Source: a virus
Taxonomy: Duplodnaviria; Heunggongvirae; Uroviricota; Caudoviricetes
Length of the DNA stretch: 7,344 bases
Reading direction: 5' to 3' (one strand)
Virus record (IMG/VR): IMGVR_UViG_2703718843_000005
Below, piece after piece: positions 1 through 7,344 of this stretch (positions within the stretch are counted from its first letter, which is position 1; each line of letters begins with the position of its first letter). The notes under the pieces are model-generated. The model was not told where the DNA came from. It did no database searches and saw nothing but the letters and a program-made list of their open reading frames with translations. The position numbers were made by a program, and so were the translations under genes.

Positions 1-184
1 GATTCCCGGGGCGGTTCAGTTCTTTATTAGTGGAAGAATCCGGACCGTACTTCTTTATCCAGGCATAAAGGCTGTGGGTGGTGATATCGAGACGTGTTGC
101 AACGCTGGCAACAGAATAACCGCGATCAACAACCTGTTTGACTGCTTCAGTTTTAAACTCTTCGGGATAACGCTTACCGCTCAT
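1..184 (-). CDS. IS3-family transposase OrfA, N-terminal fragment (helix-turn-helix region); partial and possibly interrupted after codon 55
   Basis: Minus-strand ATG at 184-182 translates to MSGKRYPEEFKTEAVKQVVDRGYSVASVATRLDITTHSLYAWIKKYGPDSSTNKE..., which I recognise as an IS3-family OrfA N-terminus. No stop inside the window, so it is absent from the ORF track. Confidence 0.6.
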   Translation of the reverse strand, partial: MSGKRYPEEFKTEAVKQVVDRGYSVASVATRLDITTHSLYAWIKKYGPDSSTNKELNRPGN

Positions 185-247
185 GGGCACCTCTCTTTAA
201 GCCATCTTAAATGACTCTGAGGTGTCTGTTAAACCCGTGGCGATTCA
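1..247 (-). mobile_element. IS3-family insertion sequence terminal portion (partial, runs off the left edge); element end at nt 247, with a second IS3-type terminus-like sequence at nt 1-18
   Basis: Read on the - strand from 247: TGAATCGCCACGGGTTTAAC..., a TG-initiated IS3-type terminal repeat, followed 64 nt later by an orfA-like start. Reverse complement of nt 1-18 is TGAACCGCCCCGGGAATC, resembling the canonical IS3-family terminus as I recall it. Confidence 0.6.
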
Positions 248-577
248 GTTTAAATCTGCATTCAGTCTGTCATTGGTATTTGCTTTCGCCGCTACGTTGC
301 AGAAAAGCTGACTGGGGTAGATGAAGTAGCCTTTAGTTTTGATGGCATCGTCTTTAATGTCATCAGTAATTACGCTGTCATCCAGTTTCGCATAACAGAT
401 ACTGTCATCACCGGCTTCAATATAGCTGGAAAAATTTTCGCTGATAAAACGGTAGAAAAGTGCGCCCAGAACGTATTGCTTAAAATCCCATCCATCGACC
501 GAACCCCTGACATCGTTAGCAATTTGCCAGATTTGACGATGAAGCTCTGCACGTTGTTGAATACTTGTCATTTTCAT
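245..577 (-). pseudogene. hsdM: Type I restriction-modification methyltransferase HsdM (EcoR124-like, type IC), N-terminal 110 codons only, truncated by the IS insertion
   Basis: Translation MKMTSIQQRAELHRQIWQIANDVRGSVDGWDFKQYVLGALFYRFISENF... matches my recollection of the EcoR124-family HsdM N-terminus. Full HsdM is over 500 aa; here the stop (TGA, nt 247-245 on the - strand) is supplied by the first three bases of the IS terminus. The SAM-binding and catalytic motifs are absent. Confidence 0.75.
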
Positions 578-716
578 CCACTTATTTCAGGCTTATGTAA
601 TTGGATGTGATTCTACAGCAACTTGGATGCTTTAGCAGTTCGGACATTAGGCTACGAATGACCTGCCTAGAGGTTTGTTAAGCCGCAAAGTGCTGGTGCT
701 TTATGCCTGTGAAGTT

Positions 717-747
717 TATAATTGTGTACACATAACGAGTACACGAG
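717..747 (+). promoter_or_regulatory. phd-doc promoter -10 element and Phd/Doc autoregulatory operator (two palindromic sites)
   Basis: TATAAT at 717-722, immediately followed by the perfect palindrome GTGTACAC (724-731) and a second GTAC-centred imperfect palindrome CGAGTACACG (736-745), directly upstream of the phd RBS (GAGG) and ATG at 754. Two adjacent palindromes is the known architecture of the P1 phd operator. Confidence 0.6.
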
Positions 748-753
748 GTGTTT

Positions 754-975
754 ATGCAATCCATTAACTTCCGTACCGCGCGCGGCAACCTTTCTGAAGT
801 GCTCAACAATGTTGAAGCCGGGGAAGAGGTTGAAATCACCCGCAGAGGCCGTGAGCCAGCAGTAATTGTCAGCAAGGCTACTTTCGAAGCCTACAAAAAA
901 GCGGCGCTGGATGCTGAATTTGCATCCCTGTTTGACACCCTGGACTCCACCAACAAGGAACTGGTTAACCGATAA
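754..975 (+). CDS. phd: Phd antitoxin (prevent-host-death), 73 aa
   Basis: [73 protein letters not shown] matches P1 Phd as I recall it. ATG at 754 is preferred over the ORF-track GTG at 748 because GAGG sits at correct spacing. Stop overlaps the doc start (TAATG). Confidence 0.93.
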
Positions 976-1355
976 TGAGGCATATATCACCGGAAGAACT
1001 TATTGCGCTTCATGATGCGAATATAAGCCGCTACGGCGGCCTGCCGGGAATGTCAGATCCGGGCAGGGCAGAGGCCATTATCGGGAGAGTCCAGGCCAGA
1101 GTTGTGTACGAAGAGATCACCGACCTTTTCGAAGTCTCCGCCACCTACCTGGTGGCTACTGCGAGAGGGCATATATTCAATGATGCCAATAAGCGTACCG
1201 CGCTAAACAGTGCGCTGTTATTTCTACGCCGTAACGGGGTGCAGGTATTTGATTCACCTGAACTGGCAGACCTTACTGTAGGCGCTGCGACCGGAGAGAT
1301 ATCTGTATCTTCTGTCGCCGACACGTTACGTAGATTGTATGGTTCCGCGGAGTAG
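975..1355 (+). CDS. doc: Doc toxin (death-on-curing; Fic-fold kinase that phosphorylates EF-Tu), 126 aa
   Basis: 126-aa product with the Fic-type motif HIFNDANKR (encoded about nt 1170-1200), located immediately downstream of phd with a 1-nt start/stop overlap; matches P1 Doc from memory. Confidence 0.93.
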
Positions 1356-1359
1356 ATTA

Positions 1360-1539
1360 ATGGCACGTAAATACAACAAATTGTCCCGTGAAGCGTTAAA
1401 GATGCTTCTTGATGGCGTGAGTCGCCGCGAGGTAAAGCAATACCTGGTTGGTAAGCAAATTGGAGCCAGGACTGCTATTGCTGTGTTATGCCGTCAGGAA
1501 ATGGTTGTGCTTAAACAGAGAATGCCGGGCAGCAGATAA
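1360..1539 (+). CDS. pdcA: PdcA (post-doc protein A), small basic protein of unknown function, about 59 aa
   Basis: Position directly after doc as in P1. The ORF track starts at 1339, overlapping the doc 3-prime end; ATG at 1360 is preferred because GGAG at 1347-1350 gives proper RBS spacing. The start is uncertain. Confidence 0.6.
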   Translation: MARKYNKLSREALKMLLDGVSRREVKQYLVGKQIGARTAIAVLCRQEMVVLKQRMPGSR

Positions 1540-1566
1540 AGCCCAATCAGTGATGAAAGGTGTGAT

Positions 1567-2610
1567 GTGAAAGCCGTAATTACTCCCTTTGTACAAAAAG
1601 AGCTTGGCGTCGCCACATTCAAAGTGGATCAGGAAGTCAGAAAACTGGTGGAGGCTGGCCGTAAATTTATTATGGAGCCGGTGCCGCGTGAGTTAATCGA
1701 GCACATGGACGACGGCCTCGTTGTTTCCGAGCAAACTATGGCAACAAATGAGGCGTTGCAGCCGTTTTTTAACAGCGATGAACTGTTTCGCCGTATTGGT
1801 GGAATTGACGCGCTGGTGGCGTGGTTGCGCAGGAAAGAGGGGCAATGCCAGGCCGCAGATCGTAGCTGGTGTGACAACCATATTGTCCACGCAGAACGAG
1901 ACAATAGCGCGGTGTTGTTGTGCTGGCATCACGATAACCATTACCGGATGCGTGGTTTTAATGAGCTGAAAGAAACGCTGCATAATAATCGCGTTAACTG
2001 GATACTGGATGTCGCCCGTCAGGAAATGGGGCTTTCAGATGGCCATGATTTAAGTATTCAGGAACTGTGCTGGTGGGCTTTCATGCGCGACATGATGCAC
2101 CTGATGCCGGAAGAAGTCTGCCGTATATCAATAAATAAGATTAAGGCTGCAACGCAGGATAGCGGACCTATGAAAGAGGCGGATATTCGCCCGTATGACG
2201 ATCGCGCTACAGCATATGTTCAGATGATGGAAGAACGCGCCGCGCCGATGCGTGCAAAAGTATGCCCTGTGGATGTTGACTCCGACCCTGGCATGGCGCA
2301 TTTCAAAATACCAAAACTGCAATCGCTAAAATTACCCGAGTACATGGACTTTGTTGCTTCCCGTCCGTGCTGTGGATGTGGAGCTGCGGGAGCTGGCGCT
2401 CGCATTACGCCTTATATCGTTCGTCATAGTCGATTATGCGCGCATGACATTTACGCAATTCCTCTGTGCCAGTCATGCCAGCGTGATATTGAGCGTGACC
2501 GCGATAATTGGGAGAAGACGCACGGCAGGCTGGCGATGCATCAACGATTGTTCTTTGATTACGCGCTTGGAGTCGGCGTTATCACAAGTCACTCGTCGAG
2601 CGTTAGATAA
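1567..2610 (+). CDS. pdcB: PdcB (post-doc protein B), 347 aa, function unknown; contains two Cys/His-rich clusters
   Basis: GTG start at 1567 with AAAGG RBS upstream. Long uninterrupted ORF in the P1 pdcB position. Cys/His clusters are encoded at about nt 1846-1941 and 2368-2478. Confidence 0.7.
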
Positions 2611-2611
2611 A

Positions 2612-2628
2612 GTTGCTCTAATGTATTG
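2612..2628 (+). promoter_or_regulatory. C1 repressor operator-like site upstream of lpa
   Basis: GTTGCTCTAATGTATTG matches the asymmetric P1 C1 operator consensus ATTGCTCTAATAAATTT at 13 of 17 positions, with a perfect 10-bp core TTGCTCTAAT. Lpa expression is known to be C1-repressed in P1. Confidence 0.6.
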
Positions 2629-2656
2629 CTATTTCTTTAATCGATGGTATTATATT
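2627..2656 (+). promoter_or_regulatory. Candidate sigma70 promoter for lpa overlapping the C1 operator
   Basis: TTGCTA (2627-2632) and a TATTAT/TATATT-rich -10 region (2648-2656), about 45 bp upstream of the lpa start; the spacer length is approximate. Confidence 0.4.
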
Positions 2657-2698
2657 CGTCGTTGATTAGTTGACATGGGCTAATCAGTAGGTGACAGG

Positions 2699-3151
2699 AT
2701 GTTACTTAACTGGCAGGGACGCCACTTCATGGAAATAAATCACTCACGAATTACATCGTATGAGATTGCGGATTACATGATCCGCACTAAATCTCTTCTA
2801 TCAGCGAAAGAACTCGCAGCAATCCTTGAAAAGGAATACCCGCATCTGGATGTCGATAAGCGCGATGTTTATCTGCGCTTAAAGGCTATCGCTGTGTCTA
2901 AGTATTCGTCTGTTTTGATTGATGACAGTACACGCCCACGTAGATTTCAGATCCACTCTCTGAATCCTGAATTCTTTCGCCGTAGCCGCGCTCCGCGCCG
3001 GTTTGATGAAAAACTCCAGAACGAACTCTATATGACGCAGGACGAAAAGGAACGCCGGGAGCACCAGCCTTGGGTAATGGCGCGTCAACTTTTCAATAAG
3101 GTGGCCCGTCAGCACCGTCATTACGGTAATGCCACATCCGCACGTATCTGA
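2699..3151 (+). CDS. lpa: Lpa, late promoter activator (P1 gene 10 product), 150 aa
   Basis: 150-aa ORF in the canonical position between pdcB and pacA; AGGTGA RBS 7 nt upstream of ATG 2699; preceded by a C1 operator-like site. Confidence 0.85.
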   Translation: MLLNWQGRHFMEINHSRITSYEIADYMIRTKSLLSAKELAAILEKEYPHLDVDKRDVYLRLKAIAVSKYSSVLIDDSTRPRRFQIHSLNPEFFRRSRAPRRFDEKLQNELYMTQDEKERREHQPWVMARQLFNKVARQHRHYGNATSARI

Positions 3152-3161
3152 TTGATTGCTT

Positions 3162-3179
3162 GCCCGTTCCGGGCCTTTT
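3162..3179 (+). terminator. Possible weak intrinsic terminator after lpa
   Basis: GCCCG-TTC-CGGGC hairpin (5-bp GC stem, 3-nt loop) followed by CTTTT, 11 nt after the lpa stop. Confidence 0.35.
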
Positions 3180-3185
3180 GACATG

Positions 3186-3220
3186 TGACTTTCGTTACCC
3201 TCGCGTCAAAAAGAGTTTTT
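3186..3220 (+). promoter_or_regulatory. Candidate Lpa-dependent late promoter for pacA-pacB
   Basis: TTGACATGTGAC (contains the palindrome ACATGT) followed by a TANNNT-type element TACCCT (3205-3210) and the inverted pair TTTTGAC...GTCAAAA (3187-3193 / 3214-3220), 17-50 bp upstream of the pacA start. P1 late promoters are known to pair a -10 element with an upstream inverted repeat in place of a -35; I cannot recall the exact consensus. Confidence 0.35.
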
Positions 3221-3236
3221 ACGAAAGGAAGCATAA

Positions 3237-4430
3237 GTGACCTGGGACGATCACAAGAAGAATTTTGCTCGCCTGGCGCGAGATGGTGGTTACACCATCG
3301 CACAGTATGCCGCCGAGTTTAATCTTAACCCTAATACCGCACGTCGTTATCTCCGTGCCTTCAAAGAAGACACCAGGACAGCGGACAGCCGCAAGCCAAA
3401 TAAGCCTGTCAGGAAACCACTAAAAAGCATGATCATTGATCACGCTAATGATCAACGTGCAGGTGATCACATTGCGGCTGAAATAGCGGAAAAACAAAGA
3501 GTTAATGCCGTTGTCAGTGCCGCAGTCGAGAATGCGAAGCGCCAAAATAAGCGCATAAATGATCGTTCAGATGATCATGACGTGATCACCCGCGCCCACC
3601 TGACCTTACGTGATCGCCTGGAACGCGACACCCTGGATGATGATGGTGAACGCTTTGAATTCGAAGCTGGCGATTACCTGATAGATAACGTTGAAGCGCG
3701 GAAGGCCGCGCGCGCTATGTTGCGTCGGTCCGGGGCCGATGTTCTGGAAACCACTCTTCTGGAAAAGTCTCTTTCTCATCTCCTTATGCTGGAGAACGCC
3801 AGGGATACGTGTATTCGCTTGGTGCAGGAAATGCGCGATCAGCAAAAAGACGATGATGAAGGTACTCCGCCTGAATACCGTATCGCGAGCATGCTAAACA
3901 GCTGTTCCGCGCAGATAAGCAGCCTGATCAACACCATTTACAGCATCCGGAATAACTATCGAAAAGAAAGCCGGGAGGCGGAAAAGCACGCTTTATCTAT
4001 GGGGCAAGCTGGCATTGTTAAGCTGGCATACGAACGAAAGCGTGAAAATAACTGGTCAGTGCTGGAAGCGGCTGAATTCATCGAGGCGCATGGAGGAAAA
4101 GTGCCGCCCCTGATGCTGGAGCAAATCAAAGCCGATCTGCGTGCTCCTAAGACCAATACCGATGATGAGGAAAACCAAACAGCATCTGGCGCTCCATCAC
4201 TTGAAGATCTGGATAAAATCGCGCGAGAACGGGCCGCCAGCCGCCGCGCTGATGCGGCATTGTGGATTGAGCATCGTAGAGAAGAAATTGCCGATATCGT
4301 CGATACAGGTGGTTATGGTGATGTCGATGCGGAAGGCATATCAAACGAAGCATGGCTTGAACAGGATCTGGACGAAGACGAGGAGGAAGACGAAGAAGTT
4401 ACCCGCAAACTGTACGGGGATGATGATTAA
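3237..4430 (+). CDS. pacA: PacA, terminase small (pac-recognition) subunit, 397 aa
   Basis: GTG start with AAAGGA RBS; 397 aa; contains the hexamer-repeat pac site internally; strongly acidic C-terminal tail ([11 protein letters not shown]); stop overlaps the pacB start (TAATG). Confidence 0.9.
3430..3588 (+). other. pac site: phage P1-type packaging cleavage site with Dam-methylatable hexamer repeats
   Basis: Four TGATCA hexamers at 3430-3435, 3437-3442, 3449-3454 and 3464-3469, then three TGATC(G/A) hexamers at 3560-3565, 3572-3577 and 3583-3588 (a further TGATCG at 3611-3616). Each contains GATC. This is the known 4 + 3 arrangement of P1 pac inside pacA. Confidence 0.85.
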
Positions 4431-5914
4431 TGGCCAGAAGTTGCGTAACGGACCCACGTTGGCGCGAGCTGGTGGCGCTATATCGTTATGACTGGATTGC
4501 GGCCGCTGATGTGTTGTTTGGGAAGACACCAACCTGGCAGCAGGATGAGATCATTGAGTCCACGCAGCAGGACGGCAGTTGGACAAGTGTGACCTCCGGC
4601 CATGGTACTGGTAAATCGGATATGACGAGTATCATTGCAATACTCTTCATCATGTTTTTCCCCGGCGCTCGCGTCATTCTGGTCGCTAACAAAAGACAGC
4701 AAGTCCTTGATGGTATTTTCAAATACATAAAGAGCAATTGGGCTACTGCTGTTAGCAGATTCCCGTGGTTGTCGAAGTATTTCATTCTTACAGAAACGTC
4801 TTTTTTTGAGGTGACTGGCAAGGGTGTTTGGACAATATTGATAAAGTCCTGTCGCCCCGGAAATGAGGAGGCGTTGGCTGGTGAACACGCCGATCATCTC
4901 TTGTATATCATCGACGAAGCGTCGGGTGTGAGTGATAAAGCATTCAGTGTGATAACAGGTGCGCTGACCGGTAAGGATAACCGTATTCTGCTTCTTTCCC
5001 AGCCTACGCGACCTTCAGGCTATTTCTACGATTCACACCACAGACTAGCTATTCGCCCGGGAAATCCTGATGGATTGTTTACTGCGATAATACTGAATAG
5101 TGAAGAATCTCCGCTTGTAGATGCAAAATTTATACGAGCAAAACTTGCGGAGTATGGCGGTCGTGATAACCCCATGTACATGATCAAAGTACGTGGTGAA
5201 TTTCCCAAATCTCAAGATGGCTTTCTTCTTGGTCGTGATGAGGTTGAGCGGGCGACGCGGCGAAAGGTCAAGATTGCCAAAGGATGGGGCTGGGTTGCAT
5301 GTGTTGACGTTGCTGGTGGCACAGGACGAGATAAGTCCGTTATTAATATCATGATGGTGTCCGGCCAGCGAAATAAACGCCGTGTAATCAACTATCGTAT
5401 GCTGGAATACACAGACGTTACAGAAACGCAGTTAGCCGCCAAGATTTTCGCAGAATGTAACCCAGAACGGTTCCCGAACATAACCATAGCTATTGATGGC
5501 GATGGCTTGGGGAAATCGACGGCTGATCTAATGTACGAACGCTATGGCATTACCGTCCAGCGTATCCGCTGGGGTAAAAAGATGCACAGCCGTGAAGATA
5601 AAAGCCTTTATTTCGATATGCGCGCTTTCGCGAATATTCAGGCGGCAGAAGCTGTAAAATCAGGGCGTATGAGGCTTGATAAGGGGGCTGCGACTATAGA
5701 GGAAGCATCAAAGATACCGGTAGGGATAAATTCCGCAGGTCAATGGAAGGTGATGTCAAAGGAAGATATGAAGAAAAAACTCAACCTGCACTCACCGGAC
5801 CATTGGGATACATATTGTTTCGCTATGTTGGCGAACTATGTTCCCCAAGATGAAGTGCTTAGCGTCGAAGACGAAGCGCAGGTTGATGAAGCTCTGGCAT
5901 GGCTTAATGAATAA
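4430..5914 (+). CDS. pacB: PacB, terminase large subunit (ATPase/nuclease), 494 aa
   Basis: 494-aa ORF with Walker A-like SGHGTGKS (about nt 4592-4615) and Walker B-like [10 protein letters not shown]; translationally coupled to pacA. Confidence 0.9.
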
Positions 5915-5938
5915 CTCATTAACCATGCCGGATGGAAA

Positions 5939-6790
5939 CTATTGCGCGCTTTCGGGGTTGTCGTTTACTGGCTGCCCCTTCTTAGTTTTGCGCCTGCGCG
6001 TAACTGATGCGGCTGATTTGACCTTTTTCTCTTCGCGAGTGATGGCAATTTGTTTTTTTACATTTTCAATATCTGCCAGGCGATATATTTTTGCCTGCGG
6101 CCAGCGGTCGCAGATGATCGGTTCTATAGAGTCATAAAGGCTAAATTTTGCTTTCTCAAATTCACCGTTGATGATGATTCCATCTCGGAGAGTTTCATCG
6201 CAGATAAACACGCCACATAGCGGCACATGGTAACTAACTGATTTGCCATCATTGTAGTTAGGGCTACTGGAAATGTAATGGACGCGCAGCATTGTTTCGC
6301 TAAAGCCGTGTACGCGCATACGGAATTTTTCATCCTCCGGGTACTGCTTCATTAGCTCTTTTGTTGCTTCCAGGTTCTCTATGTATTTCGCACTGTGCTC
6401 ATTGATCCCCGCGCTTTTTTGGATGCGAATGTCCTTATCAATCAGATGAATAATGCGGCCAGCGGTCATGTTGACGCTGTTCACAGCTTCTGTCTGATAA
6501 GTTGTAACCTTGCGCACACCGCGAAGGATGTTAGGCACTGGATATAAAATAGTCTTTGGGATATTGAGGTCTGGGTACTGTTCCAGTTCCCGCGCCATTA
6601 AAGTCCATTTATCAATTTCAGCCTGAATGCTGTCAGTTTCTTTGAACGGTAGAACGACAACCGGGCGTACAGGACGACCGTCGCTGGCTGTATCAACGTG
6701 TTGGGCGCGTGCAACAGCTTTTTTTAGAAAGAGATCCCTGAAGCTGACGAACTCCTGGTACAGTTGTTCGCCGTAGACATAATTTATCAT
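5939..6790 (-). CDS. c1: C1 repressor of lysogeny (P1 immC), 283 aa
   Basis: 283-aa product beginning MINYVYGEQLYQEFVSFRDLF..., matching P1 C1 from memory; strong RBS GGAGGAGG upstream on the - strand; convergent with pacB across a 24-bp gap. Confidence 0.9.
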   Translation of the reverse strand: MINYVYGEQLYQEFVSFRDLFLKKAVARAQHVDTASDGRPVRPVVVLPFKETDSIQAEIDKWTLMARELEQYPDLNIPKTILYPVPNILRGVRKVTTYQTEAVNSVNMTAGRIIHLIDKDIRIQKSAGINEHSAKYIENLEATKELMKQYPEDEKFRMRVHGFSETMLRVHYISSSPNYNDGKSVSYHVPLCGVFICDETLRDGIIINGEFEKAKFSLYDSIEPIICDRWPQAKIYRLADIENVKKQIAITREEKKVKSAASVTRRRKTKKGQPVNDNPESAQ

Positions 6791-6884
6791 TGATCCTCCT
6801 CCAGAATTGACATGGTCAATAACGCCCGGCTGAGAAAACCGGTCATTACTGACCTATATTATAGAGGGATCAAACAAAAATAAT

Positions 6885-6901
6885 AGATTTATTAGTGCAT
6901 T
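6885..6901 (-). promoter_or_regulatory. C1 operator-like site between coi and c1 (autoregulatory Op99-type region)
   Basis: Minus-strand AATGCACTAATAAATCT matches ATTGCTCTAATAAATTT at 14 of 17 positions. P1 c1 is known to be preceded by a cluster of C1 operators. Confidence 0.5.
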
Positions 6902-7110
6902 TATTGTGAGTCTAACTGGTTAGTTGCCATGAGATATTCGATTGTGTCAGTGAGGTCATCCAGGTCGTCTTGGGTGATGCGGTACTCCTGATTGGATATC
7001 TTTGAGTAGTGTTCAGCAATGGCGCGGGCTGCGTCGGTTTCGGCAGGGTCTACAGATAAAGCGTTAGAGCAATGTCTAACGTCGTCGATGGTTGGTTGAA
7101 TGAAAGCCAT
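6901..7110 (-). CDS. coi: Coi, C1 inactivator protein, 69 aa
   Basis: 69-aa ORF MAFIQPTIDDVRHCSNALSVDPAETDAARAIAEHYSKISNQEYRITQDDLDDLTDTIEYLMATNQLDSQ immediately upstream of c1 on the same strand, with GAGG RBS; matches P1 Coi from memory. Confidence 0.85.
   Translation of the reverse strand: MAFIQPTIDDVRHCSNALSVDPAETDAARAIAEHYSKISNQEYRITQDDLDDLTDTIEYLMATNQLDSQ
7057..7073 (-). promoter_or_regulatory. C1 operator-like sequence inside the 5-prime part of coi (candidate only)
   Basis: Minus-strand ATTGCTCTAACGCTTTA: perfect 10-bp core ATTGCTCTAA, 12 of 17 matches to consensus overall; lies within coi codons 13-18. Confidence 0.3.
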
Positions 7111-7229
7111 AATTATGCCTCACTGTATTGACAACACAGAGCCTGAAGCTCTGACCTACTGTTTCACCCATGATCCATGCTGGGGTAATCTAACAACATT
7201 GCGCTGTGTGTAAGATGAGCAATGCATAG

Positions 7230-7344
7230 GGAAGGTGCGAATAAGTTCCTGATATGAGATCATCATATTCATCCGGAGCGCATCCCAGAGGGACATCATG
7301 AGCCATCAACTCACCTTCGCCGATATAGTGAATTCAGCACTAAG
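7230..7344 (+). mobile_element. IS5-family insertion sequence, left end (partial, runs off the right edge)
   Basis: GGAAGGTGCGAATAAG at 7230-7245 matches the 16-bp IS5 terminal inverted repeat as I recall it; an InsH-like transposase start follows 68 nt later. Confidence 0.75.
7298..7344 (+). CDS. IS5-family transposase (InsH-like), N-terminal 15 codons, partial
   Basis: ATG at 7298 translates to MSHQLTFAD..., matching the IS5 InsH N-terminus (MSHQLTFADSEF...) for the first nine residues before diverging. Confidence 0.65.
   Translation, partial: MSHQLTFADIVNSAL

Follow-up and report, generated by a model that had tools for sequence, protein, structure and literature searches.

The hsdM remnant and the P1 block

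The window, i.e., the whole stretch of 7,344 nucleotides analyzed here, matches exactly positions 34739-42082 of NZ_CP081712.1, a 74.8-kb plasmid of E. coli strain AH21, and differs by two bases from a sibling plasmid, CP099133. Its left end (1-247) is occupied by parts of two IS elements, followed by the beginning of an hsdM gene read on the minus strand, a short stretch of non-P1 DNA and a long block of phage P1 DNA that starts upstream of phd-doc and ends in an interrupted imcA gene.

The open reading frame at 245-577 (minus strand) is a real reading frame of 110 amino acids, with a peptide that starts MKMTSIQQ and ends NADLN (577 down to 248). Its residues are identical, 110 of 110, to the first 110 residues of the EcoR124II M protein, which is 520 aa long and has a solved structure (PDB 7bst_D, E=1e-70), placing the stub in the HsdM sequence group of EcoR124, EcoDXXI and EcoprrI and bearing out the type IC identity proposed for it in the earlier note. 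The stub DNA is 99.6% identical to the intact hsdM of the IncY plasmid NZ_LT883139, with which the window is collinear from 248 rightward and unrelated leftward. At the junction 247/248 the minus strand reads GAT TTA AAC / TGA ATC GCC, where the intact gene reads AAC AGC ATC TTC; alignment to intact hsdM identifies the TGA stop (245-247, minus strand) as the first three bases of the IS terminal repeat. The proposal that an IS3-family end interrupts hsdM behind codon 110 and contributes the stop codon is thus exact to the base.

The Pfam search detected a partial HsdM_N domain in the stub (profile positions 1-91 of 135) and no N6_Mtase. An intact relative of 518 aa carries HsdM_N at residues 10-157 and the catalytic N6_Mtase at residues 171-479. 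The stub has lost N6_Mtase and a third of HsdM_N, the break falling inside HsdM_N and not at a domain border; with the catalytic domain gone, the methyltransferase is inactivated, as the earlier note had it. RefSeq labels the stub a pseudogene, 'type I restriction-modification system subunit M N-terminal domain-containing protein, incomplete, missing C-terminus', and about 636 relatives run to full length. We estimate the probability at roughly nine in ten that window positions 248-577 (minus strand) are a non-functional hsdM remnant, 110 of about 520 codons, of a type IC cassette of the EcoR124/EcoDXXI family.

Upstream of the stub, 100 bp of non-P1 DNA (578-677) belong to the hsd cassette, being collinear with the plasmids carrying intact hsd genes and with phage phi456, and are presumed to be the hsdM promoter region. 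hsdM and phd are divergent, with a spacer of 176 bp (578-753). The break of P1 homology predicted for 578-716 was located by alignment at 677/678: window positions 678-7229 align to P1 87970-94521 at 98.1% identity without gaps (blastn). The break coincides with the humD stop codon, which is included in a shared TTAAGC.

The first part of the P1 block (678-753, plus strand, P1 87970 onward) contains the phd promoter region, with TATAAT at 717-722; Pphd is annotated in P1 at 87986-88014. The phd (754-975) and doc (975-1355) genes form an intact toxin-antitoxin pair on the plus strand (Pfam PhdYeFM_antitox and Fic/DOC) and have 0 and 1 amino-acid differences from P1, respectively. Within 1339-7229, pdcA, pdcB, lpa, pacA (with the pac site), pacB, c1, coi and imcB are intact by ORF lengths equal to those of P1, and imcA is truncated; the ORFs of the block have 0-14 amino-acid differences from P1. 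The pac hexamers lie inside pacA at 3430-3469 and 3560-3616, as TGATCA/G clusters of four on each side, and 225 of the 230 bases across the region are those of P1. Compared with the humD-phd-doc region of P1, gene order and sequence are the same from 678 rightward, the phd promoter region being within the shared part.

P1 homology ends at 7229, and the right edge of the block is the left end of ISKpn26 (IS5 family; 7230-7344, plus strand), which interrupts imcA; the annotation directly downstream is 'IS5-like element ISKpn26 family transposase'. Because ISKpn26 occupies the same imcA site in NZ_LT883139 and in phi456, its insertion predates the hsdM truncation. On the host plasmid, two ISKpn26 copies bracket the dms (DMSO reductase) operon between coi and cra-cre, in a composite-transposon-like arrangement.

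IS elements and the host plasmid

Positions 19-247 (minus strand) are the left 229 bp of an IS3-family element and comprise its terminal repeat and codons 1-55 of orfA (184 down to 20). The terminal repeat begins TGAATCGCCACGGG, and the two repeats of this outer element are of the TG...CA type, the left one being TGAATCGCCACGGGTTTAACAGACAC (247 down to 222) and the right one TGAATCGCCACGGATAATTTAGACAC. orfA starts at 184 and encodes an HTH_Tnp_1 domain (Pfam, E=3e-15); RefSeq labels the fragment 'IS3 family transposase, incomplete, missing C-terminus'. Over these 229 bp, identity is 98% to the end of a full-length element of 1,230 bp from a Klebsiella phage record (extract L011, 2501-2729) and 90.7% to the ISEhe3 annotated in Shigella phage SfIV. 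Since a full copy was obtained only from that Klebsiella phage record, which is unannotated, and the match to the annotated ISEhe3 is 90.7%, we kept the name ISEhe3-like. E. coli IS matches with 100% identity were rejected for naming, being fragments themselves (e.g., next to cobU with an IS30 insertion), as was the copy of phage ev099, also a fragment.

In the full 1,230-bp relative, orfA is followed by orfB in another frame. Here the middle 729 bp are missing and the C-terminal part of orfB lies to the left of the window; both ends of the element survive (CP099133, extract L001 6081 and 7889), and it is defective because of the missing interior. The 729 bp are replaced by an IS629 nested in the ISEhe3-like element without a duplication of its own. 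This copy spans 1,310 bp (L001 6351-7660), most of it outside the window to the left, and over that length it has 99.1% identity to the 'IS3 family IS629' annotated in Stx phages. By comparison with CP099133, the last 18 bases of its terminal inverted repeat are window positions 1-18 (minus strand), window base 1 being L001 7643.

The same 229-bp ISEhe3-like left end, 100% identical, was seen in NZ_AP019189.1 (extract L009, 2501-2729) upstream of cobU-cobS-cobT, cut by IS30, and this cobU-side IS fossil is present in many E. coli chromosomes. The best 15 matches of the IS fragment in complete E. coli genomes all carry no label beyond 'transposase'; one of them was looked at more closely and proved to be a truncated pseudogene.

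Like its siblings, NZ_CP081712.1 is an IS-rich mosaic with a RepB-family initiator and SopAB; CP099133, typed IncFIA/IncFIB, has RepE in addition. These plasmids carry metabolic cargo, among it dms, dgo and ABC transporter genes, and also fragments of an A/C-type transfer region. Its P1 pieces are the block in the window, cra-cre and c8 beyond the ISKpn26-bracketed dms segment, and truncated ref and darB. Head, tail and lysis genes are not annotated on the host plasmid, and it has neither the full P1 set of replication, lysis and morphogenesis genes nor the IncY or p0111 replicon by which a Punavirus is recognized. Because only P1 fragments lie in a RepB/SopAB mosaic, the plasmid is not a P1-like prophage. 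The slot does hold cargo different from that of P1, as in the earlier note, but the host is a mosaic plasmid with an IS-bounded P1 fragment; NZ_LT883139 and phi456, in contrast, are replicons of the P1-like type and have morphogenesis genes next to the cassette.

With the genes of the 6.55-kb P1 block intact from phd to imcB, the plasmid is predicted to have P1 addiction and possibly P1 immunity. The conserved pac site would in principle allow a helper P1 to start packaging from the plasmid.

Origin of the IS/hsdM junction

The outer IS element is flanked by DNA ending ATCGA on one side and beginning GTTTAA on the other, with no target-site duplication. A simple insertion of an IS3-family element leaves a short (3-4 bp) target-site duplication on its flanks. 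Beyond the other IS end (CP099133, L001 5827-6102) we detected a C2H2 zinc-finger gene truncated from 108 to 91 codons, the last six of which are IS-encoded; it is annotated as a normal protein in CP099133.1. The backbone of this flank shows 99.9-100% identity to F-type plasmids of Klebsiella, which carry the gene whole and without the IS; most of the matching records, 2,008 of 3,051, are such plasmids. With no target-site duplication and with flanks derived from different replicons, the boundary is a rearrangement junction and not a simple insertion. What stands of the 'IS insertion' into hsdM of the earlier note is that the IS end abuts codon 110; a simple insertion does not agree with the lack of a duplication and with the zinc-finger gene at the far flank.

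The rest of hsdM, hsdS and hsdR were absent from the complete NZ_CP081712.1 and CP099133 sequences, both by blastn with the whole locus and by tblastn with HsdR, HsdS and HsdM. The hsd-locus blastn returned a single 520-bp remnant on each of the two plasmids. The look to the left of the window proposed in the earlier note recovered the rest of the IS and no hsdS or hsdR remnants on either plasmid, and the proposed search for an intact hsdM found none elsewhere on the NZ_CP081712.1 plasmid (blastn, tblastn). Because the searches gave the 520-bp remnant only, the 3' four-fifths of hsdM together with hsdS and hsdR are gone and not displaced.

Few records have the IS/hsdM junction (5 in PLSDB, and one of the 5,426 RefSeq E. 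coli genomes). The reciprocal junction, between the hsdM codon 111 side and the other IS end (TGAATCGCCACGGATAATTT), was found in 0 of 72,556 plasmid records and 0 of 5,426 E. coli genomes. Neither parental junction was detected in the 72,556 plasmid records or the 5,426 complete E. coli genomes, and for this reason we infer the route of the rearrangement.

The P1 block of the window derives from an hsd-carrying P1-like lineage. The IS junction marks the rearrangement by which a fragment of a P1-like plasmid was connected to another replicon, with loss of the hsdM 3' four-fifths, hsdS, hsdR and everything beyond. In a later step, IS629 probably entered the ISEhe3-like element, with the loss of 729 bp of its interior, killing the element. 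One sibling plasmid, CP057278, which belongs with CP099133 to the UK isolate series RHB31, has since lost more DNA next to this IS629 end. There the IS629 end (extract L013, 7660/7661) is joined directly to window position ~4781, inside pacB, and a later deletion of about 4.8 kb has taken out the ISEhe3-like end, the stub, phd-doc, pdcA, pdcB, lpa and pacA along with the 5' part of pacB. Decay of this plasmid lineage is ongoing.

For the junction itself we suggest, at slightly better than even odds, recombination between two IS copies, one in hsdM and one in the other plasmid. It is possible, though rather unlikely, that the IS inserted into the hsdM of a P1-like plasmid or cointegrate and that an IS-mediated adjacent deletion or intramolecular transposition then reached up to the zinc-finger gene. 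Such a sequence of events is consistent with the IS629 end being a deletion boundary twice, inside the ISEhe3-like element and in CP057278, and with the lack of an IS at the zinc-finger site in every Klebsiella-type plasmid examined. However, IS3-family elements transpose by copy-out/paste-in, which does not itself delete adjacent DNA, and an IS that keeps both ends but has mismatched flanks is typically the mark of two copies having recombined; with neither parental junction among the sampled records, the data fit both routes.

The 110-aa frame could also be regarded as a retained small gene for an HsdM N-terminal-domain protein, for instance a decoy against the type IC enzymes of competing plasmids, which we consider very improbable. 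The frame has its native start, upstream region and 110 undamaged codons, at 99.6% identity to the intact gene, and the N-terminal region of HsdM takes part in subunit contacts and in the control of methylation (PMC12707154). Against retention, the stub is seen solely with the IS junction, in five near-identical PLSDB records and one of the 5,426 RefSeq genomes, while the ~636 relatives continue to full length; its stop codon comes from the IS, the cut lies inside HsdM_N instead of at a domain border, and the stub is already deleted in the sibling CP057278. The more specific idea, that the 110-residue fragment is expressed and acts as a dominant-negative decoy against the type IC enzymes of competing hsd-carrying P1-like plasmids, is more doubtful still, its one support being the intact 5' end, and the same narrow distribution, cut inside a domain and loss in a sibling speak against it; if it were true, the 'pseudogene' would serve against restriction or in incompatibility and would have been kept for that.

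A chimeric join made by the assembly at a repeated IS deserves mention, as IS-rich plasmids are prone to misassembly and many IS copies are present here, but it is hardly credible given the identical junction shared by five complete plasmid records that were deposited separately and stem from UK isolates and a Canadian strain, the unique sequence on both sides of the short 229-bp IS fragment, and the coherent derived state of CP057278. The in-place insertion assumed in the earlier note, with hsdM split and the rest of hsdM-hsdS-hsdR just left of the IS, is what one would first expect of an IS next to a gene and agrees with the presence of both IS ends, but is refuted by the Klebsiella-type backbone with its zinc-finger gene beyond the IS, the missing target-site duplication and the lone 520-bp hsd remnant of both complete plasmids.

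The left end belongs with the ordinary cases of IS-mediated pseudogenization and replicon fusion in enterobacterial plasmids, with which it shares TG...CA ends, an orfA with an HTH domain, nested ISs, mismatched flanks and adjacent deletions. Nothing in it is unusual compared with such decay, the sole curiosity being the IS terminus that gives an in-frame TGA right after codon 110.

The pap-phd slot and the fate of the hsd locus

In P1, humD precedes phd (NC_005856), as the earlier note stated, and the genes left of phd are pmgT-pmgU-pmgV-upfMNO-hot-lxr-humD, all read in the same direction as phd except lxr; in their place the lineage of the window had a divergent hsd cassette. Comparison with P1 bore out that the cargo of this slot differs, the hsd cassette being in place of the pmgT...humD segment. 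The complete cassette, hsdM-hsdS-hsdR, is 6,185 bp long and replaces P1 84483-87969; many P1-like phage-plasmids have it between pap and phd, transcribed away from phd, and window positions 248-677 (430 bp) are what remains of it here.

Intact hsdM-hsdS-hsdR genes next to phd were detected in the IncY plasmid NZ_LT883139 and in phage phi456. The window from 248 to its right end is 99.9-100% identical to NZ_LT883139 and about 98% identical to phi456 over the parts retained; both have the same ISKpn26 in imcA, and phi456 has ISKpn26 in its hsdS as well. The hsdS of phi456 (OR339795.1, extract L004, 9357-10560) is split by this element, the transposase of which is mis-annotated as 'putative baseplate hub protein'; the split is a second, independent IS strike on an hsd cassette in a P1-like element. 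In the chromosome of E. coli NCTC11129 (NZ_LR134222.1), positions 4605400-4605872 are 100% identical to window positions 248-720, a hint that a copy of the hsd/P1-like region is integrated there or was assembled into the chromosome.

The hsd state of the slot is common. In PLSDB, the hsdM-phd-doc junction is present in 641 records and humD-phd in 476, and 532 of the hsd carriers keep at least 80% of the hsdR-to-phd stretch. According to notes in NC_005856, P1 87969..88647 matches the 'sequence upstream of EcoDXXI hsd locus' and the DNA that follows the EcoDXXI and R124/3 hsd loci on their downstream side corresponds to P1 84263..84482. Tyndall et al. 1997 (Mol Microbiol 23:729) is the paper cited for type IC hsd loci with P1 DNA on their flanks (reference 364 in PMC12707154), and in a survey of P1-like phage-plasmids the pmgT...humD segment counts among eight regions of high variability (PMC9603915). 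The condition that the earlier note named as refuting it, namely that P1-like phages normally carry such sequence upstream of phd, is half confirmed: hsd is a common alternative allele there (641 vs 476). The hsd allele being common and long known in P1-like plasmids, the cargo difference is not peculiar to this element. The cassette at the pap-phd slot is already known from Tyndall et al. 1997 and the boundaries in NC_005856, and the stub pseudogene is already in RefSeq.

The comparison with the EcoR124I/II and EcoDXXI loci is close at both ends of what survives: the 110 HsdM residues match EcoR124, and the P1 boundary at 87969/87970 is the one annotated for EcoDXXI. Relatives of this type have the full hsdM-hsdS-hsdR order with a left boundary at P1 84482. 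The present locus, in contrast, has 430 of 6,185 bp and no catalytic domain, hsdS or hsdR, making it a fossil and not a working member. Neither the hsdS and hsdR genes of a type IC system, absent from the window and from the whole plasmid, nor a complete HsdM with N6_Mtase was found.

Type I enzymes act as methyltransferases in the form M2S1 and as nucleases in the form R2M2S1. Having no AdoMet-binding or catalytic motifs, no HsdS and no HsdR, the locus is predicted neither to methylate nor to restrict, nor to complement EcoR124I subunits, and from its gene content and the biochemistry of type I enzymes the stub is likely inert. The earlier note spoke of a 'methylase-less type I system' in decay; the decay of a defence locus stands, but no 'system' is left, hsdS, hsdR and the 3' part of hsdM being absent.

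The stub may still be transcribed and translated because its native upstream DNA is kept. A sigma-70 promoter scan of positions 150-800 returned nothing in the hsdM-phd spacer and also missed the known Pphd, so that it is uninformative on stub expression. No P1 C1 operator was detected upstream of hsdM (578-753) at up to 3 mismatches; two matches lie elsewhere in the window. The phd-doc pair, which keeps its own promoter, is predicted to be unaffected by the stub.

The locus has little significance beyond its correct annotation; it adds a further case in which ISs wear down a defence locus on a plasmid and join replicons together. Among P1-like elements, the pap-phd slot has two common states, the hsd cassette or pmgT...humD, and a P1-looking stretch whose cargo seems odd may turn out to be a P1 fossil bounded by ISs on a plasmid unrelated to P1.
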